This document shows positions 49,518 to 64,000 of a stretch of DNA of 64,000 nt, in pieces. The stretch spans positions 31 to 64,030 of the forward strand of contig ONQZ01000005.1 in assembly GCA_900320095.1 (NCBI GenBank), given 5' to 3'. Every line of letters starts with the position of its first letter. Within the stretch, counting starts at the first letter, position 1. Both the position numbers and the translations under genes were made by a program. The notes under the pieces are model-generated. The model did no database searches and was not told the DNA's origin. It saw only the letters and a program-made list of their open reading frames with translations. This DNA comes from an uncultured Lentisphaerota bacterium (lineage in GTDB: Bacteria; Verrucomicrobiota; Lentisphaeria; Victivallales; UBA1829).

Positions 49518-50093
49518 ATGACTGAATCGTACAACACGACATGCATGCAGAGGCATCTCATTGACCTCGGGACAACTGTGCCCCCGTCCCTCCGTGTCTT
49601 CACGCCCGACGCTCTGTTCCGGGAGCAATCCAAGTTCATTTCCGCCTCAATGCAACTTGATTTCGGGCTCCACTGCGCGCTCGTCATGGAGGCTCGCCAG
49701 GCGAACGGCCTGCACTTCTCTATCCGCGCGCAAGCACCCGAGGCGCCTCAATCCCTGTTCGGTTTCACCTCGGCATCCGCCGTGGAGGTCCTGCCTTCCT
49801 TCCGTGTCGCCGTGGAGTTCACGGCCGCCTCGAAGGAAACCCAGCTTTTCGTGTCGTCGCGAAGCACGGCGCTTCCGCAGTGGGGGATTTATCCTCCCAT
49901 TTCGTTCCGCGGCAGCCTCGATTTCGGCACGGTCATTTCCGTTCGCGGCACCTTCGACTTCGTCCGTTCGCTTTCCAGGGCTGCCGCGAAGCGCGCCTCG
50001 GCCTCGGCCGACGCCCTGCGTCGTTCCCGTCGTTTCGAGGTCCGTCACAACAACTGCGGAGGTCTCGCCTCCGGGAGGGCCCTGCGGCTATGA
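49518..50093 (+). CDS. hypothetical protein (191 aa) upstream of the giant repeat protein
   Basis: From about 49600 onward this frame shows host-like GC3-rich codon usage (ctc gtc atg gag gct cgc cag gcg aac ggc ctg cac ttc...). The start was chosen at ATG 49518 (MTESYN). No family was recognised. Confidence 0.45.
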   Translation: MTESYNTTCMQRHLIDLGTTVPPSLRVFTPDALFREQSKFISASMQLDFGLHCALVMEARQANGLHFSIRAQAPEAPQSLFGFTSASAVEVLPSFRVAVEFTAASKETQLFVSSRSTALPQWGIYPPISFRGSLDFGTVISVRGTFDFVRSLSRAAAKRASASADALRRSRRFEVRHNNCGGLASGRALRL

Positions 50094-50446: not shown

Positions 50447-53400
50447 ATGTCTGAATTTACTAAAGACACTTATCTCCTGCAGGAATCCTTCACCGAACCG
50501 ACTATTGATGTACTGATAGATGAAGGTTACAAAGCATACGATCGTTTCGCGGAAGCCTATCTCAACTACAAAAATGAAACGACAAAGCCGGGAACCTTCA
50601 ATGTTTATGGCGGAAGCTATTCCATGAAGAACTCGGAAGTCCCCGTTGAGATCGGGGCGACGAATATGACCATTTCCAGCGCGCTGTACGAAGGCGGGTT
50701 TGTGGAAGCGAACACGAAGTTCGAACTCACGGCCACGAATTTCATCAATAATGGCACGATCAGTATTATTGACGAGTCGGAAGATACTTATTCCGTCACA
50801 TTTAAGAGCAGCAATGCAGAGTTCGTGAACAATAGCAGCGTGACCGTCAGCAACGCCATTTTTGATGTTGCAACCGTTTCGAACGCTGCCAATGCCACGT
50901 TCGCTCTGACCAATGGCGCCGTGTTCACCGCCGCAAGCGTCACCAACAGCGGTTCCTTCTCTCTGGACAATGCCGCGTTCACCGCCACGACCGTCAACAA
51001 CAACGCCGGTGCCACCTTCAATCTGACGAATGATGCTTCTATTGAACTCGCCGCCGTTACCAACGACGGTACCTTCAATATTGTCAAAGGCAATGTCGCT
51101 GGAAAATTCAGCGGTACTGGCACCATTGAGATCAACACCAATACTCTTGAGGCCAATACTATCGATATTTCCGGTACCGGTACCGTCAACCTGAAAGGTA
51201 TCGCCAGCTCCAAGTATGTTAAGCTCGGAAGTGCAAAAATCGAAGCTGCGACTATTTCCTCCACCAAGCGTGTCGATCTGGATGGTGCTACGCTGAAAGC
51301 CACTACGGCCACTCTTGCCGATATGAGACTTTCCGGAACCAATACTTTTGATTTTGGAAGCCTCACCGCCGGTACGCTCTACATGATGGCAAACAGTCAG
51401 ATCAAGGGTTCTAATATTGGTTCCGAGTCCGGCACGAAAGCTACGATCCAGTCCTGGTCTTCGAATCCTACGGTTTCCATCTCTGGCGAGAACGACCTTT
51501 ATGCGACCATTACGAACAAAGGCACTCTCAACATTGCTGCTGCGGGAAAAATCTATACGGCTTCGATCGTGAACTCCGGTGCAGACTCCAAGATCATCAG
51601 CGACGGTGCGAACGTTGTCCTCGGTTCTGAGGAGAAGAGGGTCAGCCTTTCGAACACCAAAGGCCTTATCGGTCTGGAACACAACGCAACCGTCGTTGCG
51701 TCCTCCATCTCCGGCGACAGCGGCGCCACGTACGAGATCACTGATTCCTCTGTCACTGCGGAATCCCTTTCTCTTACCTCTTCCTGCGCATTTGTCGTCG
51801 AAGGCGTAAGCTCTCTGAATATTGGCACTGTCTCCAGCAACAGCACGATCACACTTCAGAAAGCCACCATCTCTGCTTCCTCCATCAGCGGCGGCAAGGT
51901 CAGCATCCCCAAGCAATATGATACCGGAAACGGAACTCCCGAAGAGCCGGCAATGGCTGACAACACCGTTACGTTCAGCGGCGATAACAGCATCCTCTCC
52001 ACCATCACCAACAACGGCGCGATCATCGTCAACGACACGCTGACTGCCGGTGCTGTCACCAACAACGGCGCGATCACCGTCAACGGCACGCTGACTGCCG
52101 GTGCTGTCACCAACAACAGCGGCAGCTCCCTCACGCTCGCCAAAAACGCTACCCTGAATGCTTCTTCTCTGACGGTCGATGGCGGCTCCCTCTCCCTGGG
52201 AGTGGGCAGCACCGTGGATCTCGGCGAAGAAGGCGATCTCATCAGCAGCGTTGGCCTCACCATCACGTCTGCAACTGTGATTGCCGACGAGATCAAGGCA
52301 GAAGGGAAAGCCCTTTCTTTCGTTACGTCCAATATCACGGCTAATACGATTACCGCCAACACTGCTGAGGTTCGTGGCAATGCGACCATGGATGTCGGTA
52401 CCATCGGCGATACAGTTATGACGATCAAGAGCATTAATGTAGACAAACGCACGACGATCACGGACAGCTCGATCGGTACTGGTTCTGTCAACACTCTGCT
52501 CAATGTTGATTTCGTTGGAACGAACACCTTCGATGCTATCACCAACGGAGGCAAAGTTACTGTTTCCGGTTCCCTGACCGCGACCAGCATCACCAATGGC
52601 GAAAACGCTACCTTCACCGTTTCCGCCGCCGGCACTCAGCTGAACACCAAGTTCACCGGCACAATCACGTTCGCCGACGGCGCTACCCTCGGCAAATCCT
52701 CCTTCGGTGCGGACAGCGTCATCACCGCCACTAACTTCGCGATTGCGGATGAAGCCGCAGTTACTCTCACGGTTGGCGAAGCCACGAAGCTTAACGCCAA
52801 CATCTCCTCCGGCACGATCAACCTTGTTTCCGGTTTTGACGCTGAAACGGCGCCCGAATGGGACCTCTACCAGCTCATTAATGGTACGATTGGTGATGAT
52901 GTCACGTTTACGGTTGACGGAGTGCAAGCGGGATCCATCAAGCTCGGAGACGAGACCTATGGCCTTATCAAGCTTGATACCGGTCTTTGGCTTACGAAAG
53001 GCCAGGACAACGAGAAGCTTTACATCAATGCCGCTTATGCTGGTTTAACCCCTGGTGCGAAAACTGATGATGGTCACATCTACGGCTACAACGCGTTCAG
53101 CAGCCTGAGAGATCCTGCCCTGTCCTACAACGCCACAGGCGTTGGTCAGGATATCAAAGATGCCGCTAAGAACGCGAAGAATCTCGTCCTCACCGGTTCG
53201 ATCACTGACGGCAGAACCCTGTTCTACACGGATCAGCCCACTGTTACCATCACCACCACCGGCGAGAACGGCGCTTCCTTCACGGAACGCCTCTATCTGA
53301 TGCACGATATCATCTACAAGAAGGAAGGTGACTCCTTCGTAGTCTACGACAAGGACGGCGAAACTCCGATCACTCAAGCCACGCTCCCCGAGTTCATTCT

Positions 53401-56400: not shown

Positions 56401-58780
56401 CCCGTTTGGCGGTCATGAATACGTGTATGCTCTGAGTGCTTTCGCCACTGCCACTGCGATGACGAAGATTGGGGAAGACACCGAAGAGATCGATTTCGTG
56501 ACGCAGAGCGGCACTTATGGCAACCTGAATCTGACCCTCTTTGCCGATCAGGAGATTAACGTCTACGTGGTCAACGGAACCGGCAAAAAGGTCTCCGCCG
56601 ATCTCAACTTCAACAACCTGAGCATTGCTGCGTCCGAGGCTGGGGAAGATGAAGACGTTGGGGCTATCACTTTCAACAATGACGTCGTGACCGGTGCCGA
56701 AGTTGCCAATACGACGGTCGCCATCTCCACCGCGACGGTCGACTTCCAGGGCGCCAACTTCTCCGCAAGCAAGAGCGTCACCATCAAGGATGATGCGCAC
56801 GTCACGTTCAGCGACGATTTCAGCGCTGCTGCTGCCACCATCACCGGTTCCGAGGTTGTGTTCGGCGGCAATGCCGCCTTCGCCGGCAATGCCGCCATCA
56901 CCGCCGGTTCCGAGGTTTACTTCCGTGATGAAGCGAACTTCGCCGGCACTGCGAACATCAGCGGTTCCACGGTTTACTTCCGTGATGAAGCGAACTTCGC
57001 CGGCAATGCGACCATCAGCGGTTCCACGGTTGCGTTCGGCGGCGCTGCCACATTCTCCAACGGAGAAACGGACGGTGCCGTGAATGCGACCATCAGCGGT
57101 TCCACGGTTGTGTTCGGCGGCGCTGCCACGGTTGAAGGCCTTCTCAAGCTCACCGGATCGGAAGTTACCGCAGAAGCTGAGATTACCGCCAGCTCCACCA
57201 ACCTGGATAAGAATTCTACGCTCAACCTCTCGACGGAAGACGCCAAGCTGGGCGACCTCACGACTGCAGCGGGCAGCAAGATCAACCTGACGTATCAATC
57301 CAAGCTGAGTTTCACAGCTACCGCCGTCCAGGGCAACTTTGACATTGATGTGACCGGCCTCACGAGCACGAAGAACACTGCTTCTGCGACGATCACGGGC
57401 ATTCCCTCTGTCACTAAGGTCTCCATCGTTGGAAACAACACCGAAAACAACGTTGCGAAATACTTCAATTACAACACTGAGAACAAAACCCTCACTCTGA
57501 TCAAAGAAGCCTGCAACGAGATCAAGGTCAACAGCAAGTCGTCCCTCGACAACGCTCTTAAGTATACTTGGGAAGGCGATGATGGCGAGACGTACTACGC
57601 CGACAATGTGATCGTTCAGGATGTGACCTATGCAGACGCTCTGTATTTCGTGAACGCTGCCAGAACGGCTCATGTCAATCAGTACATCACGATTGAGGGC
57701 GGCGAGTTCCAGAAGAGTGTGTTCGGCGGCAAAAAGCAGGAAACTGCGGGCACCGGCAGATTCGATGTCGTTGATCTCGGTGGGAATCTCAACCTCACGA
57801 TTGAAGACGGTCATTTTACAAGGACCGTCGTTGCCGGCGACAACATCAAGGTCAAAGGCCTGTTCTATCGTGAAGGCACGATCACCACGACCATCAGTGG
57901 CGGTACGTTCGACTACAACTTTGCCGGCGGTCTGCTTTACAACCTCACGGATGTTACTTCCCAGGCAATCGTCACGGGCACGAGCCTGACGATCAACAGC
58001 GAAACCGCCGATACAATCTTCAATGATACGGTTTACGGTGGTAACTTCTCGCAGAAGAAGGCCGGTTCCAACTGCACGTTCATTGACGAGAAAGCCATTG
58101 TCAGAATTGAGGCCGGTGAAGAGAATACGATCCAGATGAAAGCTCTGATCGTTGGTTCCTATGGCAACGGCGTCATCGAAAAAGGTACGGAACTTACCCT
58201 GACCGGTAACGGCGACAACCTCGAGATCGAGTCCGTCTGGGGCGGCTGCGGCAGTGATTACTACACGGAAGATGCAAAACGTGAGTATGTCACCACGATG
58301 GCTGCGAATGCGACGAGAACGCTGACGTTCGAAGGCTTCAAAAACACGTTCAACTGCACGTCGATCCGCGGCTTCTCCGATGTCATCGTCAAGTCCGAAA
58401 CGGAAGTTACGCTGATCAACACGGATAAGTACGGCCTGGCCGATGCCAGCAACTGGACGTTCGAATTCGGCAGCTCGCTGAACGGCGCGTTCGCGAACAA
58501 CTTCGCCGGCGACGATCTGACCCTGACCGGAATCGAAGCTATGAAGACGGTAGCTGAAGGTGGGGACCCCTGGGTCATCTGCGACAATATCAACTTCGAG
58601 ACATTCGCTTTCAAGGGTATCAAGAGCATCAACGGTGCTACCGGTGACGACCTCGTGTTTGCCGACAACGCCTACACGTTTGCTGCTGGTGACAACCAGT
58701 ACAAGCTCTCCTTCGGCGATTATAATGTGGGTGAGAGTGAGGAAACGAGCAGCGCCATGTACCTCACGCGTCTTGCCTAA
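50447..58780 (+). CDS. giant (2,777 aa) beta-helix-type repeat protein, adhesin/Pmp-like; no N-terminal signal peptide, no recognisable C-terminal barrel or sorting signal
   Basis: AAAGGAAAAAACA precedes the ATG. There are hundreds of 17-25 aa repeats of the type (T/S)xxNxGxhxh..., including GGA/FxxN-like units (FGGAATFSNG, FRDEANFAGNATI) reminiscent of chlamydial Pmp repeats. The acidic N-terminus MSEFTKDTYLLQESFTEPTIDVL has no hydrophobic h-region. Cys content is very low. Confidence 0.9.
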   Translation: MSEFTKDTYLLQESFTEPTIDVLIDEGYKAYDRFAEAYLNYKNETTKPGTFNVYGGSYSMKNSEVPVEIGATNMTISSALYEGGFVEANTKFELTATNFINNGTISIIDESEDTYSVTFKSSNAEFVNNSSVTVSNAIFDVATVSNAANATFALTNGAVFTAASVTNSGSFSLDNAAFTATTVNNNAGATFNLTNDASIELAAVTNDGTFNIVKGNVAGKFSGTGTIEINTNTLEANTIDISGTGTVNLKGIASSKYVKLGSAKIEAATISSTKRVDLDGATLKATTATLADMRLSGTNTFDFGSLTAGTLYMMANSQIKGSNIGSESGTKATIQSWSSNPTVSISGENDLYATITNKGTLNIAAAGKIYTASIVNSGADSKIISDGANVVLGSEEKRVSLSNTKGLIGLEHNATVVASSISGDSGATYEITDSSVTAESLSLTSSCAFVVEGVSSLNIGTVSSNSTITLQKATISASSISGGKVSIPKQYDTGNGTPEEPAMADNTVTFSGDNSILSTITNNGAIIVNDTLTAGAVTNNGAITVNGTLTAGAVTNNSGSSLTLAKNATLNASSLTVDGGSLSLGVGSTVDLGEEGDLISSVGLTITSATVIADEIKAEGKALSFVTSNITANTITANTAEVRGNATMDVGTIGDTVMTIKSINVDKRTTITDSSIGTGSVNTLLNVDFVGTNTFDAITNGGKVTVSGSLTATSITNGENATFTVSAAGTQLNTKFTGTITFADGATLGKSSFGADSVITATNFAIADEAAVTLTVGEATKLNANISSGTINLVSGFDAETAPEWDLYQLINGTIGDDVTFTVDGVQAGSIKLGDETYGLIKLDTGLWLTKGQDNEKLYINAAYAGLTPGAKTDDGHIYGYNAFSSLRDPALSYNATGVGQDIKDAAKNAKNLVLTGSITDGRTLFYTDQPTVTITTTGENGASFTERLYLMHDIIYKKEGDSFVVYDKDGETPITQATLPEFILAEGAKLNGGSMLKVGESLDKDDYSEETGFTRTAGAVKLTVNGDIKSFIQVNPYSSVKVSKTGSVISESNGTGVTENEDRQSTYIRVNGSLTVNGDPDAELKVLQFKMQRLTFTDGGTLALNNTNAQFSRIRFYDEGFTIPTGKATITVTNSIVNNFENNALDNLEGGYNFFVYGASETAAVKSKQTVELTLDNSEMKVSDKAVFNPNANTTINVKNASTLTVGNVTNDGAINLENGAELDVNGAVTNNATGVINVGKAGDEDESELFANSIENAGTITVTDSTLNATVVNTSAVGAKFTVGGTSTLNISGTGSSLTGTITLADGANVKATIARGGTLNVAADTAATLAEGSSVASLITNAGTLTLDGVTKTGRITNNGTVNGSASTVGGIINNVGSVSLTGKSFSSVTVKDGTVSLIAESADTGIAVGSITNGTKGTTRAAAIDGTFDANGNVTGSGAITNNAGSIKVTGNLTLTPNSTTGVRPAITNGSIYTSGNIVQVGVGSIEVTGALTAGDFVNNAGATAQVSSAELVSLTNNGSFTATSAVTAGAITNGTAATTDPVAAAVEGSFSAAGLTASGDLVNNAGSVSVTGNAVFKKDTTLFDITNSASGLTGIEESVGFKVTGALTAGDFENKAGATAQVGSAELSSLTNNGSFTATGTVTTTGEIANSESGEIIVSGKITGASVGNVGTIEAGSIKTTGEYGLGNSGTIGSTSATAIETTILSNSGTIYASTLNAASINNSSATASITAVSIEGTGTASLIENAGSITATNVSAATVSTNGASFTVGGESSELNISKKLTGTITLADGANVTAMVKGGTLDVENGSTVSLTGAEGNTAAVTNLGNLTIAGGTIGAVTNKQVVVDKDTVKGTLTVESDKAIQTGAFTNNAIVNVNSAFTVKGNFNNQAGATITIDATKFDFTESNTVCAIEVTGTLTNAGEISVTGGAPGEYDLIVKNDGTDKGVYLYKNSDPDDPVDMSYLLVYSDLASQYKPGEPFPFGGHEYVYALSAFATATAMTKIGEDTEEIDFVTQSGTYGNLNLTLFADQEINVYVVNGTGKKVSADLNFNNLSIAASEAGEDEDVGAITFNNDVVTGAEVANTTVAISTATVDFQGANFSASKSVTIKDDAHVTFSDDFSAAAATITGSEVVFGGNAAFAGNAAITAGSEVYFRDEANFAGTANISGSTVYFRDEANFAGNATISGSTVAFGGAATFSNGETDGAVNATISGSTVVFGGAATVEGLLKLTGSEVTAEAEITASSTNLDKNSTLNLSTEDAKLGDLTTAAGSKINLTYQSKLSFTATAVQGNFDIDVTGLTSTKNTASATITGIPSVTKVSIVGNNTENNVAKYFNYNTENKTLTLIKEACNEIKVNSKSSLDNALKYTWEGDDGETYYADNVIVQDVTYADALYFVNAARTAHVNQYITIEGGEFQKSVFGGKKQETAGTGRFDVVDLGGNLNLTIEDGHFTRTVVAGDNIKVKGLFYREGTITTTISGGTFDYNFAGGLLYNLTDVTSQAIVTGTSLTINSETADTIFNDTVYGGNFSQKKAGSNCTFIDEKAIVRIEAGEENTIQMKALIVGSYGNGVIEKGTELTLTGNGDNLEIESVWGGCGSDYYTEDAKREYVTTMAANATRTLTFEGFKNTFNCTSIRGFSDVIVKSETEVTLINTDKYGLADASNWTFEFGSSLNGAFANNFAGDDLTLTGIEAMKTVAEGGDPWVICDNINFETFAFKGIKSINGATGDDLVFADNAYTFAAGDNQYKLSFGDYNVGESEETSSAMYLTRLA
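52007..52108 (+). repeat. tandem 51-nt (17-aa) coding repeat, two near-identical copies
   Basis: ACCAACAACGGCGCGATCAtCGTCAACGaCACGCTGACTGCCGGTGCTGTC is repeated immediately with ~2-3 substitutions (TNNGAIIVNDTLTAGAV / TNNGAITVNGTLTAGAV). Confidence 0.9.
54918..55378 (+). repeat. 348-nt-period duplication inside the giant gene (~113-nt near-identical blocks at 54918-55030 and 55266-55378)
   Basis: AGGTCACCGGCGCGCTGACTGCCGGCGACTTCG...CTCACGAACAACGGTTCGTTCACCGCCACC occurs twice, 348 nt apart, with a handful of mismatches. Confidence 0.9.
56906..57019 (+). repeat. tandem 57-nt (19-aa) coding repeat, two near-identical copies plus degenerate copies to ~57130
   Basis: GSEVYFRDEANFAGTANIS / GSTVYFRDEANFAGNATIS, followed by GSTVAFGGAATFSNG... 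and GSTVVFGGAAT... Confidence 0.9.
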
Positions 58781-58822: not shown

Positions 58823-58969
58823 ATGAAACACATGCAAATCATTGCGCAGGAGCCCTACGAGGCTCCTGCGATCTCCGAAATCGCCCCGGTCACGCTGATT
58901 TACGGGTCTGCCGGGGGCGGTTCCGGAACTGGTGAATCTGATGATAACTCCGAAGGTATTGATGACTGA
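58823..58969 (+). CDS. candidate RiPP-type precursor peptide (48 aa): MKHMQIIAQEPYEAPAISEIAPVTLIYGSAGGGSGTGESDDNSEGIDD
   Basis: Not in the ORF track (under 60 aa). AAGGAAAGGA RBS lies ~12 nt upstream of the ATG. It lies 42 nt after the giant-gene stop and is immediately followed by a strong terminator, then by PqqD/kinase/GT/peptidase genes. The composition is bipartite: a hydrophobic/Pro N-half and a Gly/Ser/Thr then Asp/Glu C-half. Confidence 0.55.
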   Translation: MKHMQIIAQEPYEAPAISEIAPVTLIYGSAGGGSGTGESDDNSEGIDD

Positions 58970-59011
58970 TTCATTCATGCATATTTGCATGATCAGTTAA
59001 AATCAGAACTC

Positions 59012-59050
59012 TCTGCATTGCGGCGGCAACGCCGCAATGCAGAACTTTTT
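59012..59050 (+). terminator. strong rho-independent terminator/attenuator between the peptide gene and the enzyme genes
   Basis: Perfect 12-bp GC-rich stem TGCATTGCGGCG/CGCCGCAATGCA (extendable to 14 bp) with a GCAA (GNRA) tetraloop, followed by AACTTTTT. Confidence 0.8.
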
Positions 59051-59065
59051 CCAGCCTATTTTACT

Positions 59066-60013
59066 ATGAATTCAAGTGTTCAGGACAGTCAGGAAATCAA
59101 AACGCATCATCAGGCGTACCGCCGGATCGTGTTGAATCTGCACGGCGGCGGTCACATCATATTATGTACAGAACCCCCGGAAGAGAAGATACTGTTTGAT
59201 GGCTTTACGCAGCTTTTATGTATGGAAGCAAATCCTTCCGAACGGGAATCGGGAACATTTGATCTGGAGTTTGTTCCCCCGTCCGAGCTTCCGGAAAAAC
59301 GACATCCGCTGATCAAAACGGCATTGACCGAGGTGGCGTATACGGAGGACTGGAGTCATATTCTGATCGGCGGATGGAAAAAGGCTCCCCATGACAAACA
59401 CTACTATAAAAACTATCTCTGGCTGACGGGACTGATCTTCGCCGGGATGAACGCGCTTTTGCGCGGGGAGAAGGCGGTATTGGTGCATTGTACGGCGCTG
59501 GAGACGGACCGCGGCGTGGTGCTGCTGTTCGGGGAAAGCGGGATGGGGAAAAGCACGGTATCGGCGCGGTGGCGCGCGCACGGAGGGAAATGTATTTCCG
59601 ACGACATGGCGCTGATGGATTTCAGCGGAGGGGATACGGTGTATGTTCGGCGGATGCCGACGTGGAGCGCATGTCGCGAGGGGAAAAATGAGTGGAACTA
59701 CCCGGCTGGGGAGGAACTGCCGTTGATCGGTGTCCTGGCGCTTGGGCGCAATGAGAGCAGGACCGGCGGGGACCAGATCGTGGAATTGAGCGCGGCGCAG
59801 TATTACGCGCAGTGCTACCGGTCGATGTTCTACTGGAACCTGCTTTATGCGGACAAACTGCCGGAGGCGATGCAGCGGCGTCTGGGAGACCGCATCCGGG
59901 CGCTGACGAACATCATCACGGGGAAATACCCGCCGCGTGCGCTGCTGACCGTACTTGAGGGGAATCCGATCCCGGTGATCGAATCCTATCTGGAAAGCCT
60001 TGGTGTGCGATGA
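59066..60013 (+). CDS. HPr kinase-like (HprK C-terminal domain family) serine kinase
   Basis: HCTALETDRGVVLLFGESGMGKSTVSARW...GKCISDDMALMD matches the HprK P-loop plus downstream DD motif. Start moved to ATG 59066 because the track start (TTG 58985) would place the terminator hairpin inside the CDS. Confidence 0.75.
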   Translation: MNSSVQDSQEIKTHHQAYRRIVLNLHGGGHIILCTEPPEEKILFDGFTQLLCMEANPSERESGTFDLEFVPPSELPEKRHPLIKTALTEVAYTEDWSHILIGGWKKAPHDKHYYKNYLWLTGLIFAGMNALLRGEKAVLVHCTALETDRGVVLLFGESGMGKSTVSARWRAHGGKCISDDMALMDFSGGDTVYVRRMPTWSACREGKNEWNYPAGEELPLIGVLALGRNESRTGGDQIVELSAAQYYAQCYRSMFYWNLLYADKLPEAMQRRLGDRIRALTNIITGKYPPRALLTVLEGNPIPVIESYLESLGVR

Positions 60014-61050
60014 AACCGAAAGTGTCGATTATCATCCCCGTGTACAACGGGGAAAAGACTGTGCGGGAAAGCTTGGAATCGGTTTTAACGCAGTCCCTGC
60101 GCGAAATCGAGGTGCTTTGCATCAACGACGGTTCGACGGACGGGACGGCGGCTGTCCTGCGTGAAATGGCCGCGGGCGACAGCCGCGTGCGGCTTTACGG
60201 ATTCGAGAAGAACCATGGGATCGTGCTGGCGGTGAAGACGGGGCTGCTGGAAGCGCGCGGGGACTATGTGATGTTCGTGGACGCGGACGACATCCTGCTG
60301 CCGGGGGCGATCGAGAACGCGGTGCGTCTGATCGAGCAATATGACGTGGACATCCTGCAGTTCGCGATTCGCGTAAAACACCCGAAAGGGGCAAACATCG
60401 GCGCATTCATGAAATCGCTGCAGTGTTTGCCGATGGAATCGTCCGGGGCAAAGATCCTGTACGACTGCTTCTGTATGCACCGGTTCCCGCACAACGTTTA
60501 TACGAAGATCTATCGGAGCAGTGTTTGCCGTACCGCAGCGGAAAACATGCCGGACATTGAGCTTAAACAATTCACGGACCTGTACCTGTCGTTCTTTTTT
60601 CTGTACTTTGCGAAGACATTCCGGAGCGTGGTGGAGGGGCCGTACTACGAATATCGGTTCCTCGGGGCCGGGGTGTTTTCCGCGCCACCGACAGCGTTGC
60701 AATTCGAGCAGATGTGCGCGACAAGCGAAATCCTGCCGCTGATCGAAGAATTCCTTCGGGACCGGCACGAATACGCCGCCCGGAAGTTCCTGGTGGACTC
60801 CATCGGCGTCATCCTGCGATGCGGCGTGCTGGACAAACTGATGGGGCTGCCCGAGATCACGGCGGAGACGATCAAGCTGGCTGAGGAACACTGGGGCAGC
60901 GACCTGATCTACGAATTTATCCGGGAAACCGGGCTGCTTGACGTGCCGTGCGAAACCCGGCGCGGCATCGTAACAAAGCTGGCCGGGGAAAACCGGAAAC
61001 TCCGGAACAACCAAACAACGATAACGATATCAAATACGAAGGGAATCTGA
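60010..61050 (+). CDS. family 2 glycosyltransferase
   Basis: VSIIIPVYNGEKTVRESLESVLTQS...CINDGSTDGT...FVDADD are classic GT2 (GT-A, DxD) blocks. ATGA overlap with the kinase gene. Confidence 0.9.
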   Translation: MKPKVSIIIPVYNGEKTVRESLESVLTQSLREIEVLCINDGSTDGTAAVLREMAAGDSRVRLYGFEKNHGIVLAVKTGLLEARGDYVMFVDADDILLPGAIENAVRLIEQYDVDILQFAIRVKHPKGANIGAFMKSLQCLPMESSGAKILYDCFCMHRFPHNVYTKIYRSSVCRTAAENMPDIELKQFTDLYLSFFFLYFAKTFRSVVEGPYYEYRFLGAGVFSAPPTALQFEQMCATSEILPLIEEFLRDRHEYAARKFLVDSIGVILRCGVLDKLMGLPEITAETIKLAEEHWGSDLIYEFIRETGLLDVPCETRRGIVTKLAGENRKLRNNQTTITISNTKGI

Positions 61051-61052
61051 GG

Positions 61053-61313
61053 ATGAAACTGAACCCGTTTGCAACGATGGCGCCGCAATTCGACGGAACC
61101 GGCCTGGTATTCGACCCGAACACCAACGCGGCGTTTTCGCTGAACAAGACCGGCGTGTACCTTTGGAACCTGGTGAAAGAAGGCGCGACCGAGGCGGAAA
61201 TGATTTCCGGCCTGTGCGGCAAATACGAGGACGTGAGCGAGTCGCAGGCGGCCGAGGATGTGAGGGCGTTCCTGGAGGATCTTCGAAACCGGTCGCTGGT
61301 GTCGGAGGCGTGA
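61053..61313 (+). CDS. PqqD family protein (RiPP recognition element-like)
   Basis: 86 aa: ...GLVFDPNTNAAFSLNKTGVYLWNLVKEGATEAEMISGLCGKYEDVSESQAAEDVRAFLEDLRNRSLV. This is the canonical PqqD/RRE pattern (beta strands then a winged helix). It starts 2 nt after the GT2 stop. Confidence 0.8.
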   Translation: MKLNPFATMAPQFDGTGLVFDPNTNAAFSLNKTGVYLWNLVKEGATEAEMISGLCGKYEDVSESQAAEDVRAFLEDLRNRSLVSEA

Positions 61314-61320
61314 ATTTGCG

Positions 61321-61938
61321 ATGAACGGGCCGGGAACGCCGAAGGAGGCGCATTACACGGGGAACAGCATGCGGGGGGCATTCGTGCCCGGGGAAATCCT
61401 TTTCCTCGCGGAAACGGCCCTTGAAACGCTTCAGATCGGCGATGTGGTCGCGATCTTCGAGCGCACGCCATACTACGTGCACCGGATCGTCGAAAAAGAC
61501 GCGTCCGGCGCCGTCACGATGGGCGACAACAACGACCGTCCGGATTCGCTGAGGCTGACGCCGGACAGCCGGCTCAAACTGGTCGTCCGCGCACGATCTC
61601 TGAACGGGACCGTGCGGCCCGTGCCCGGCGGCGATGCCGGAATGGAGATGTTCCGCCGCCAGCAGCGCAGACGGAAGATGCGGCGGATTGCCGGTTGTCT
61701 GCTTCGCCCGTTCAAGCCGCTGAAATTCCTGCGGCTCCCGGCGAACACGGAAACGCGATTCCGCGACGGAACGGTGCAGTGGAGTTTCGGAAGGATCCCC
61801 GTGGCCGCCGGTGCGCCCGACGGGAAAAGGATGTATCTGCACTGGTCGAAACGTCTGTTTTTCCGGATTCCGAAGCAGGCATCGGGCTCGGCATCCGGGC
61901 AGTCCGCGCAGGAAAAACAAGCCGAAGGAGGGAAATGA
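61321..61938 (+). CDS. S26 (signal-peptidase-fold) serine peptidase-like protein, Ser/His type, without transmembrane anchor
   Basis: GNSMRGAF (nucleophile box), IGDVVAIF...YVHRIV (His where bacterial SPase I has the general-base Lys, as in ER/archaeal/SipW-type enzymes), and MGDNNDRPDS (GDN box). No hydrophobic segment precedes the Ser. The C-terminal half is basic. Confidence 0.65.
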   Translation: MNGPGTPKEAHYTGNSMRGAFVPGEILFLAETALETLQIGDVVAIFERTPYYVHRIVEKDASGAVTMGDNNDRPDSLRLTPDSRLKLVVRARSLNGTVRPVPGGDAGMEMFRRQQRRRKMRRIAGCLLRPFKPLKFLRLPANTETRFRDGTVQWSFGRIPVAAGAPDGKRMYLHWSKRLFFRIPKQASGSASGQSAQEKQAEGGK

Positions 61939-61941
61939 GCC

Positions 61942-63135
61942 ATGAGTTACGATTACGGGATTCCGTCTTGCCTTCTTCAGTTTCTCGGCGCCTGCATGTT
62001 CGGTGATGCCAAAGACTATTACAGCCGTCAGAACGAATCCCGGAGGGGCGAACTGGAATCCGAGGTGAAAAGCTTCGGCCTGACAGCGTGGGCCTACCGG
62101 TATCTGTACGATGCGCTGCCGGAAGCGGAGCGGACGGAATACCGGAAGGACTACCAGGCGCGACAGGTGAAGGCCCTGATGGGATCGCAGGAACTGAAAC
62201 GACTCTATCGCGTGCTGGCGGAGCATCACCTGCGATTCGTACCGATCAAAGGCGCGGACCTGGCATATCGCCTGTACCCGGATACCGCACTGCGCATGTT
62301 CGGAGACTGGGACATCTGGTTCCATCCCGATGACTGTGAACGTGCGCTCTCCGTACTGGCAAACGACGGCTGGAATGCGATGAAAATGTATTCGGACGCC
62401 CAGGATGCCGCATTCAAATCCACAGAACACCATTTCTCTCCGCATGCGCGCGGACCATACGTCATCGAACCGCATTTCACGCTCGCCAACTTCGATGGTA
62501 TTGATCCGCTCGAAATCTGGAAATACACCGTGGAATATCCCGCCGGGGACGGTCAGCGGGTCCTCTCCCCGGAAATGAATCTGCTTATGCTCACCCGCCA
62601 CGCCGCATCCCAGTCGTATTATCATGCCGACATCCCGAAACTGCTTACGGATGCGGCTGTAATAATACGAAACGAAAACATCGATTATGAAGGACTCCGG
62701 AATCTGGCGGCCCGATGGCATCTGCCGTATCCGGGCGACCTGCTGGCGGCTTTCCCCGAGTTCTTCCCCGCCGATGCGATCGCGGATTTCAAGGCGGATT
62801 TGAAGAAAACCGCCGATTTCCGCCGGATCTTCGAACTCCGCGGCAAACTCGGAAAACCCGAAAACGTATCCCTTCTTCTGAGCAGGAATCAAGCACAGGG
62901 ACATGTCGTCGGAGGCGTGCTGGAGGTGATCCGGACTCATAACCCCATCATGATACGCCGAGTGTACCATCTGCCAAAACATGGCGCATGGGACCGGGTC
63001 CTGTGGGGGTATGTCTGCTGGTTCTGGACGCGGGGCTGCCGCGCGGTTTCCGCATGTTTCCGATGGAATCCGAACCTGAAAAAGTATACCGCCCTTGTCG
63101 AGTCCGTGGATTCGACGTCATCCCGGACCAAATAG
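61942..63135 (+). CDS. NTP_transf_5-type 'uncharacterised nucleotidyltransferase' family protein
   Basis: ...LRFVPIKGADLAYRLYPDTALRMFGDWDIWFHPDDCERALSVLANDGW... is the hallmark block of this family (KG..L....Y....R...D.D.....). It starts 3 nt after the peptidase stop. Confidence 0.7.
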   Translation: MSYDYGIPSCLLQFLGACMFGDAKDYYSRQNESRRGELESEVKSFGLTAWAYRYLYDALPEAERTEYRKDYQARQVKALMGSQELKRLYRVLAEHHLRFVPIKGADLAYRLYPDTALRMFGDWDIWFHPDDCERALSVLANDGWNAMKMYSDAQDAAFKSTEHHFSPHARGPYVIEPHFTLANFDGIDPLEIWKYTVEYPAGDGQRVLSPEMNLLMLTRHAASQSYYHADIPKLLTDAAVIIRNENIDYEGLRNLAARWHLPYPGDLLAAFPEFFPADAIADFKADLKKTADFRRIFELRGKLGKPENVSLLLSRNQAQGHVVGGVLEVIRTHNPIMIRRVYHLPKHGAWDRVLWGYVCWFWTRGCRAVSACFRWNPNLKKYTALVESVDSTSSRTK

Positions 63136-63832: not shown

Positions 63833-64000
63833 TCAAATATACCAGACCGGAATCTGAAGCACATTTTCCCGAAGTCGTCCAGGCTGTGGACAGTTGCAGA
63901 GAATTGCGCCGGAACCTCGCTTCGAGGATTTGACCTTGTCCAGAATCTGGAATGCTGCAGTTTCCGTTGCTTTCACGTTGGCGCTCTGCTTAATCTCAAT
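63833..64000 (-). CDS. C-terminal end of an unidentified ORF entering from the right window edge
   Basis: The reverse strand is open from the window edge: IEIKQSANVKATETAAFQILDKVKSSKRGSGAILCNCPQPGRLRENVLQIPVWYI*. No family was recognised. Confidence 0.3.
   Translation of the reverse strand: MEIKQSANVKATETAAFQILDKVKSSKRGSGAILCNCPQPGRLRENVLQIPVWYI

Follow-up and report, generated by a model that had tools for sequence, protein, structure and literature searches.

We analysed a 64,000-nucleotide stretch of DNA (the window) from an uncultured Lentisphaerota bacterium (ONQZ01000005.1), the source contig of which comes from a rumen metagenome (ENA ERZ931065). Toward the 3′ end of the window, a gene for a small peptide is followed by five coupled genes, which encode an HprK/ScmC-like kinase, a glycosyltransferase of family 2 (GT2), a PqqD-type recognition element (RRE) as used for peptides that are made on ribosomes and modified after translation (RiPPs), an S26-type peptidase and an NTP_transf_5 protein (Table 1). 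We propose that this operon is probably a Lentisphaeria variant of the pathway for linear polyphosphorylated peptides (LPPs), RiPPs described in 2026 (Popov et al., Nat Commun; PMC13381572), for which lppA-K-B-S-D-N of Paenibacillus alginolyticus DSM5050 is the reference cluster.

The enzyme genes and their conservation

The open reading frame (ORF) map contained all six ORFs that had been described, the peptide gene first and then the five coupled genes. In agreement with the original prediction, the kinase and GT2 genes are joined by an ATGA overlap (60010-60013), and the gaps that follow measure 2 nt (GT2 to PqqD), 7 nt (PqqD to S26-like) and 3 nt (S26-like to NTP_transf_5). The extent predicted for the operon, the peptide gene plus these five, was right as far as it went and missed the gene upstream: the gene for a 2777-aa giant protein, which ends at 58780 and leaves 42 nt before the peptide gene, belongs to the conserved locus. 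The extent of the kinase had to be corrected as well. Its start, previously placed at TTG 58985, is most likely ATG 59066 (315 aa), on which the gene caller and the alignment of homologues concur, because a hairpin with a T-run lies at 59012-59050.

The family assignments of the five proteins were examined with profile hidden Markov models (HMMs) and held, strongly for three of them. The GT2 (Glycos_transf_2, 3.8e-34) has a DADD motif, the NTP_transf_5 protein (Pfam, 9.5e-31) has a GDWDI motif and the RRE matched Pfam PqqD at 4.7e-17. The kinase and the S26-type peptidase gave weak matches by sequence, which were backed by motifs and structural models. For the kinase, the best matches in our local Pfam and NCBIfam copies were ScmC TIGR04249 (1e-8) and HprK_rel_A (1e-6), and the protein carries a precomputed PF27840 ScmC assignment. 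Its FGESGMGKST P-loop and SDDM motif are invariant in 35 kinase homologues, and its AlphaFold2 model (pLDDT 87, pTM 0.87) matches the PEPCK and HprK/P folds. The protein consists of a catalytic C-domain and a variable N-terminal part of ~120 aa.

The RRE gene lies directly 5′ of the peptidase gene. Among PDB sequences, its product matched TbiB1 (3e-6) and LppB (9x8z, 2e-4). Identity to LppB is 27%, and LppB residues N33, Y60, D70 and F74 align with N31, Y58, D69 and F73; in LppB, D70 holds the leader Tyr by a hydrogen bond, and the leader Pro lies packed against F74 (PMC13381572).

The peptidase belongs to class S26B (archaeal/ER-type, SipW/SEC11-like), with a Ser/His/Asp catalytic arrangement. 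Its profile matches were TIGR02228 (2.3e-9, below the cut-off of that model) and human SEC11A/C (1e-4). Among 34 homologues, S16, R55, D69 and D75 are invariant and H54 is nearly so. Over the catalytic core the protein is 28-29% identical to LppS, with S16/H54/D75 aligned on S29/H68/D93. The N-domain of the model (pLDDT 84.5) matches the LexA/SEC11/SipA fold; when the whole model was used for the fold search, the N-domain alone was matched and the C-terminal domain remained without a match. The enzyme has no transmembrane (TM)-like segment (highest hydropathy in a 19-residue window, 1.32), and throughout the family it carries a long basic helix, here formed by residues 104-137, together with a small beta domain at the C-terminus. 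At one related locus (L022:10001-12358), the S26-like ORF continues to 785 aa, perhaps because of a fusion or of a frameshift artefact.

Related loci were surveyed in 185,579 GTDB species representatives. All 12 loci found there came from genomes labelled Lentisphaeria, Lentisphaerae or Victivallales, or from rumen metagenome-assembled genomes (MAGs; RUG), and those homologues that have names are Lentisphaeria or Victivallales MAGs. The class Lentisphaeria belongs to the phylum Lentisphaerota in the Planctomycetes-Verrucomicrobia-Chlamydiae (PVC) group. The kinase and peptidase families are similar in size (174 and 156 clusters) and occur in this one lineage only. Over ~17 distinct loci, the constant core is the kinase, the RRE and the peptidase (K-B-S). 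The GT2 is an accessory gene, seen only in the window and in the L002-type locus; the NTP_transf_5 gene is present in 7 of the ~17 loci, so it is optional in the Lentisphaeria lineage.

As had been predicted for the window, neither an asparagine-synthetase-like lasso cyclase, a transglutaminase-like B2 protease nor a radical S-adenosylmethionine (rSAM) enzyme was found there, nor within 10 kb on either side in ~20 related loci. The 10 kb immediately downstream of the window, where a lasso cyclase or B2 gene could have extended the operon, contained neither. Likewise, an ABC signature, a PP-loop and a credible rSAM gene were all missing from the 64-kb window and from the 10 kb past it. An ATP-binding cassette (ABC) pump, an ABC_membrane+ABC_tran half-transporter, was encountered in L013/L014 only. 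There the pump gene (L013:4914-6566, L014:4390-6108) stands directly 5′ of kinase, RRE, peptidase and NTP_transf_5 genes. It is the sole Lentisphaeria locus seen with an LppD-like pump, and no precursor or giant-type C-terminal domain (see below) is encoded nearby.

Table 1. Features of the window, with the evidence on which each is based
Feature	Position	Strand	Basis
Giant protein gene, 2777 aa	50447..58780	+	ORF map
Precursor peptide gene, 48 aa	58823..58969	+	ORF map, peptide HMM
Terminator-/attenuator-like hairpin	59012..59050	+	Folding versus shuffles
HprK/ScmC-like P-loop kinase, 315 aa; LppK analogue	59066..60013	+	Profiles, motifs, model
Soluble GT2 glycosyltransferase, 346 aa	60010..61050	+	Glycos_transf_2
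Discrete PqqD-type RRE, 86 aa; LppB analogue	61053..61313	+	Pfam PqqD, PDB sequence matches
TM-less S26B peptidase, 205 aa; LppS analogue	61321..61938	+	Weak profiles, triad, model
NTP_transf_5 nucleotidyltransferase-fold protein, 397 aa; LppN/PsmN analogue	61942..63135	+	Pfam
Three tRNA genes	534-604, 621-702, 838-910	+, +, -	Rfam

The precursor peptide and the giant protein encoded upstream

The 48-aa window precursor (MKHMQIIAQEPYEAPAISEIAPVTLIYGSAGGGSGTGESDDNSEGIDD) has a leader in which YEAPAI supplies the YxxPx[ILV] motif for RRE binding and PV stands at Tyr+10/+11. The tail that follows is acidic and Gly/Ser-rich. To place its features, 12 Lentisphaeria precursors were collected and put in register with two LppA sequences from the supplement of PMC13381572. 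The N-half is conserved and the acidic C-half variable among the 12 homologous peptides, confirming that a conserved small ORF recurs at related loci. All 12 contain Y-x-x-P-x-[ILV], most contain P-V at Tyr+10/+11, and all have a Ser between Tyr+17 and Tyr+21, where the phosphorylated Ser3 of LppA corresponds to Tyr+18. On this register, Ser29 (Tyr+17) is the predicted phospho-acceptor of the window peptide. The cores are 13-29 aa long, with 4-9 acidic and 0-1 basic residues. When they were aligned as lasso peptides, no consistent ring-forming Asp/Glu could be assigned. A peptide HMM detected a single precursor per locus (E-values 1e-12 to 1e-22), each time immediately 3′ of a protein with the C-terminal domain described next.

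The giant protein is repeat-rich, has no N-terminal signal peptide and gave no Pfam match. Its C-terminal domain (CTD) spans ~245 aa (about 58034-58777) and ends in ...MYLTRLA; the ending across the family is ...M-x-L-T-x-[IL]-A. With an HMM built from 10 loci, the CTD was detected at the C-terminus of the protein 5′ of the peptide in 11 loci. A word-indexed search for the CTD returned nothing, and an exhaustive search gave 92 clusters at 50% identity, in which the domain is always C-terminal in proteins of ~500 to 3300 aa. It has no Pfam, NCBIfam or PDB sequence match, and none of the 18 family members examined has a signal peptide.

The linkage of the precursor to these proteins is strict: it directly follows 12 of the 13 CTD proteins with readable downstream sequence (the exception is L023), and each of three further family members that were looked up is accompanied by one precursor. 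At L027 and L028, the gene that comes next after the precursor is an RTX/AIDA-type giant and not the K-B-S cassette. Conversely, in the five K-B-S loci that lack a neighbouring CTD protein, a precursor is missing within 10 kb as well. At the level of gene linkage, the biology of the predicted product is tied to the signal-peptide-less giant encoded directly upstream, and this precursor-giant linkage is the feature that sets the Lentisphaeria variant apart. A candidate RRE leader on the giant itself (FTEPTIDVL, residues 15-23, window 50489-50515) was rejected: it resembles YxxPxL, and because it is missing in the nearest relative and in 17 other members, the resemblance is probably due to chance.

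The spacer between the peptide and kinase genes (96 nt) contains the hairpin mentioned above, which has 14 bp with 9 GC pairs and a loop of 4 and is followed by ACTTTTT. Its dG of -40.7 corresponds to a z of -7.8, and 0 of 200 shuffles folded as well. L002 and L029 have analogous hairpins 3′ of the peptide (z of -6.0 and -4.25, respectively), and none was found at this place in L018, L027 and L028. With strong hairpins in 3 loci and none in 3, a universal post-precursor terminator was rejected. In the window, a terminator-like hairpin at this place would put the giant and peptide genes on one transcript and reduce read-through into the enzyme genes.

Comparison of the window with the L002-type locus reveals a strain-to-strain swap. 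The RRE, peptidase and NTP_transf_5 protein are 100%, 99% and 100% identical, respectively. In the kinase, the catalytic half is 93-97% identical and the N-terminal ~120 aa only 13-37%. The GT2 proteins are 61-70% identical, L002 having two copies, and the giants, compared over the last 700 aa, are 25% identical. The peptide has retained its leader and exchanged its core. The swap shows which parts track the leader (RRE, peptidase) and which track the core (kinase N-domain, GT2, giant). What reads the leader has been retained, whereas what would be expected to read the core has changed along with the core itself and the giant. This pattern fits RiPP logic, and it suggests that core specificity resides in the GT2 and in the N-domain of the kinase. 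The mosaic breakpoint lies inside the kinase gene (window 59066-59430 versus L002:6190-6560).

A second giant protein, of RTX type, often lies 3′ of the cassette. This second class of large proteins (L009:10739-20278, L011:4529-10909, L013:9890-13063, L020:10712-13669, L027:7068-8474 and L028:2459-2800) adjoins the cassette or the peptide downstream and has the N-terminal pattern M..SSG..VSSGVTSTG. The full-length, Pfam-called members (L009, L011 and L013) contain AIDA and HemolysinCabind repeats, and the C-terminal ends of the L009, L011, L013 and L020 proteins resemble substrates of type I secretion systems. The L011 protein additionally has Peptidase_C10 and arylsulfotransferase domains.

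On the 5′ side of the giant gene, housekeeping functions are encoded on the minus strand (2-oxoacid dehydrogenase complex, DeoR regulator, dehydrogenase, HPPK). Just 5′ of the giant gene, a 191-aa ORF without a Pfam match occupies 49518-50093; the idea that it is a regulator shared with L027 was dropped, as it shows no similarity to the sigma factor that L027 has at the corresponding place. On the 3′ side of the operon, ~700 nt are free of genes and are followed by a minus-strand island (AAA_14/DUF4143, DUF499, a KAP NTPase and DUF1156), which covers window 63833-64000 and runs on beyond (L001:11892-21194). It resembles an island for DNA modification or defence. An Rfam scan of the window returned the three tRNAs and nothing else.

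Interpretation of the operon and competing explanations

The proposed mechanism follows, in all its steps, from homology to the tested Paenibacillus system. The 48-aa precursor would be made from the giant-gene transcript, with the downstream hairpin lowering read-through into the enzyme genes. The PqqD RRE would bind the YEAPAI leader, and the HprK/ScmC-like kinase would add one or more phosphates to the conserved Ser past the leader (Ser29); LppK places up to four phosphates on core Ser3 (PMC13381572). The S26B-type Ser16/His54/Asp75 peptidase would cut the leader from the RRE-presented peptide, in the manner of LppS (S29/H68/D93), which cuts its leader off only with LppB presenting it (PMC13381572). 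Finally, the NTP_transf_5 protein and the in-operon GT2 would decorate the phosphate with a sugar of hexose type. The product would thereby be a phospho(glyco)peptide of ~20 residues, linear and very acidic.

The last of these steps has a precedent. PsmN, an NTP_transf_5 protein, is required for the addition of hexose to the phospho-Ser of pseudomycoidin and is possibly a glycosyltransferase of a new kind or a supplier of substrate to one (PMC6993621). LppN was inactive in a heterologous host (PMC13381572). The GT2 in the present operon fits the substrate-supplier option for a PsmN-like protein, and it also fits the proposal of the LPP authors that LppN lacks a partner. Because a glycosyltransferase lies inside the operon, the locus is a candidate for the partner that those authors could not find.

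The mechanism given in the original prediction (RRE-guided, S26-clipped, HprK-phosphorylated and possibly glycosylated) is very likely right, as it matches that of the tested LPP family. The accompanying statement that the operon has no known class-defining core enzyme is superseded, since an SpI-like (signal peptidase I-like) peptidase together with an RRE, an HprK kinase and an NTP_transf_5 protein now defines a described RiPP family.

Assignment of the operon to an LPP-type pathway is based on the shared gene order, the alignable catalytic triad, the retained RRE contact residues and the Ser at Tyr+17 to Tyr+21 of all 12 peptides. Several observations weigh against it. The relationship of the peptidase to LppS is remote (BLASTP E 0.031; hhalign E 1e-3 at 19.6% probability), and the N-terminal helix by which LppS docks on LppB is missing from the window peptidase, which has a C-terminal extension instead. 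The RRE matches the lasso RRE TbiB1 slightly better than LppB. The Lentisphaeria leaders lack HQxIxFET, which forms the latter half of the consensus for LPP leaders, and the cleavage site could not be placed. Their cores are acidic and 13-29 aa long, whereas those in Bacillota are basic or neutral and 37-45 aa long. In addition, the peptide HMM found no precursor within 10 kb of eight K-B-S loci, and the window contains no exporter.

A different explanation, which we consider unlikely, is that the cassette matures or exports the giant protein, the enzymes modifying or processing the 2777-aa protein and the peptide being an accessory factor (for example a chaperone, an adaptor or a trans-supplied tag). 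The linkage data favour this explanation. The peptide gene is more tightly linked to the CTD protein (12/13, including the cassette-less L027 and L028) than to the enzymes, and it is missing from K-B-S loci that lack a CTD protein. A terminator-like hairpin follows the peptide, which is seemingly co-transcribed with the giant. Exchange between strains affected the giant jointly with the peptide core and the N-domain of the kinase. Moreover, the giants have no signal peptides and so need some dedicated exit route from the cell. The RRE-binding motif, however, is located on the small peptide, and the YxxP-like FTEPTI of the window giant is missing in its closest relative and in 17 other members. 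The homologous Bacillota system also acts on a small precursor (PMC13381572).

It is highly improbable that the operon is an ordinary phosphorylated lasso cluster of the paeninodin/pseudomycoidin type, with its cyclase and B2 protease encoded elsewhere in the genome. The lasso-type YxxPxL leader motif, the best RRE match (the lasso RRE TbiB1) and the pairing of an HprK kinase with NTP_transf_5, which are typical lasso tailoring genes, would all agree with such a cluster. Nevertheless, neither an Asn-synthetase-like nor a transglutaminase-like gene occurs within 10 kb on either side in ~20 loci, the window encodes no PP-loop protein, a dedicated S26-type leader peptidase stands in place of B2, and in the cores Gly/Ala/Ser/Cys1 is not paired in a consistent register with Asp/Glu at 7-9.

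Least probable of all is a polysaccharide or surface-glycan locus that acts on non-peptide substrates and contains a spurious small ORF: glycan loci typically contain genes for GT2 and nucleotidyltransferase proteins and Bacillota LPP clusters lie in capsule loci (PMC13381572), but the small ORF is conserved at the protein level in 12 loci with a conserved leader and a variable core, GT2 and NTP_transf_5 are dispensable across loci while the kinase, RRE and peptidase are constant, and genes for a flippase, a polymerase or sugar precursors are missing from the flanks of the window locus.

With the operon taken as an LPP-type pathway, the function of its product can be considered. We tentatively suggest, as a possibility that falls well short of our confidence in the pathway itself, that the phosphopeptide is a dedicated partner of the giant surface proteins without signal peptides, which, after maturation by the kinase, RRE and peptidase, it might serve in export, anchoring, folding or function, or to which it might be attached. 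If so, LPP-type machinery would serve adhesin or cell-surface biogenesis and not the production of a free bioactive peptide, and this would be the first functional clue for LPPs generally, since the Bacillota clusters lie in capsule loci. The tie of the precursor to giant non-Sec proteins with a new CTD thus points LPP function toward cell-surface and adhesin biology in a way that is testable.

The RiPP class itself has already been published. What is new here is the jump between phyla, the minimal core, the GT2 within the operon and, above all, the strict linkage of precursor and giant. The locus and roughly 150-170 relatives, too distant for the published search, place LPP logic in a diderm PVC lineage, and their minimal core reduces the system to a precursor, a kinase, an RRE and a peptidase.

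Comparison with known systems

In a literature search, no paper other than PMC13381572 was found to describe such a system. LPP-defining features include an archaeal-type SpI/SipW-like peptidase, NTP_transf_5, an MsbA-like pump and the lack of a cyclase, and the precursors carry a YxxPxVLxHQxIxFETxxS leader consensus (PMC13381572). The domain table of that study uses TIGR02228, PqqD, NTP_transf_5 and TIGR04249, all of which also match window proteins. Both systems have an HprK-like kinase, a discrete PqqD RRE, a TM-less leader peptidase of SipW/SEC11 type with Ser/His/Asp, and NTP_transf_5. The window order A-K-(GT2)-B-S-N equals the lpp order minus D. The leaders share YxxPx[VIL] and mostly a P-[VI] ten residues on, with a Ser a few residues past the leader. 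Neither system has a cyclase, and GT2 genes are occasional neighbours in both.

On sequence comparison, the Lentisphaeria system is a distant variant of the Bacillota LPPs and is found only in Lentisphaeria. The authors of the LPP study called LPPs restricted to Bacillota, with clusters located within capsule loci (PMC13381572), whereas the present loci belong to Lentisphaerota and lie beside giant proteins. The BLASTP E of 0.031 between the peptidase and LppS is weaker than the collection threshold of 0.001 used in that study (the peptidase is outside cluster 1 of its sequence similarity network, the edges of which are below 1e-23), which explains why it missed the Lentisphaeria lineage. Besides the leader without HQxIxFET, the short acidic cores and the peptidase with a C-terminal helix and beta domain in place of the N-terminal docking helix, the Lentisphaeria loci differ in that the MsbA-like pump is usually absent and NTP_transf_5 is optional.

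The systems for phosphorylated or glycosylated lasso peptides (paeninodin; pseudomycoidin psmCAKB1B2ND, PMC6993621) have, like the window system, a kinase of the HprK family, which in their case adds several phosphates to one Ser, a leader with [Y/W]xxP and a PqqD RRE, and with PsmN also an NTP_transf_5 protein. In contrast to them, the window system lacks a macrolactam synthetase and a B2 cysteine protease, and a serine peptidase is predicted to clip the leader. The target Ser is predicted near the N-terminus of the core, whereas it is C-terminal in lasso peptides.

The best NCBIfam matches of the kinase and the RRE were to the SynChlorMet proteins ScmC (TIGR04249, 1e-8) and ScmD (TIGR04248, 2e-12). 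Membership in that system was rejected, as the scores are 34.9 bits against a cut-off of 125 for ScmC and 47.1 against 100 for ScmD, and the rSAM/SPASM proteins ScmE and ScmF are missing. The HPr-rel-A system (TIGR04352/TIGR04353), which the original prediction had named as possibly related, fared no better: the kinase scored 28.2 bits against a cut-off of 200, and the PqqD protein 26.2 against 35.

Finally, the peptidase resembles SipW/SEC11 (S26B) and SipA of Streptococcus pyogenes pilus loci in the fold of its catalytic domain and in its Ser/His/Asp arrangement. It differs from them in having no membrane anchor, and its predicted substrate is a cytoplasmic peptide presented by the RRE in place of a Sec signal peptide. 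That an S26 homologue can be dedicated to surface-fibre proteins has precedents in SipW and SipA.

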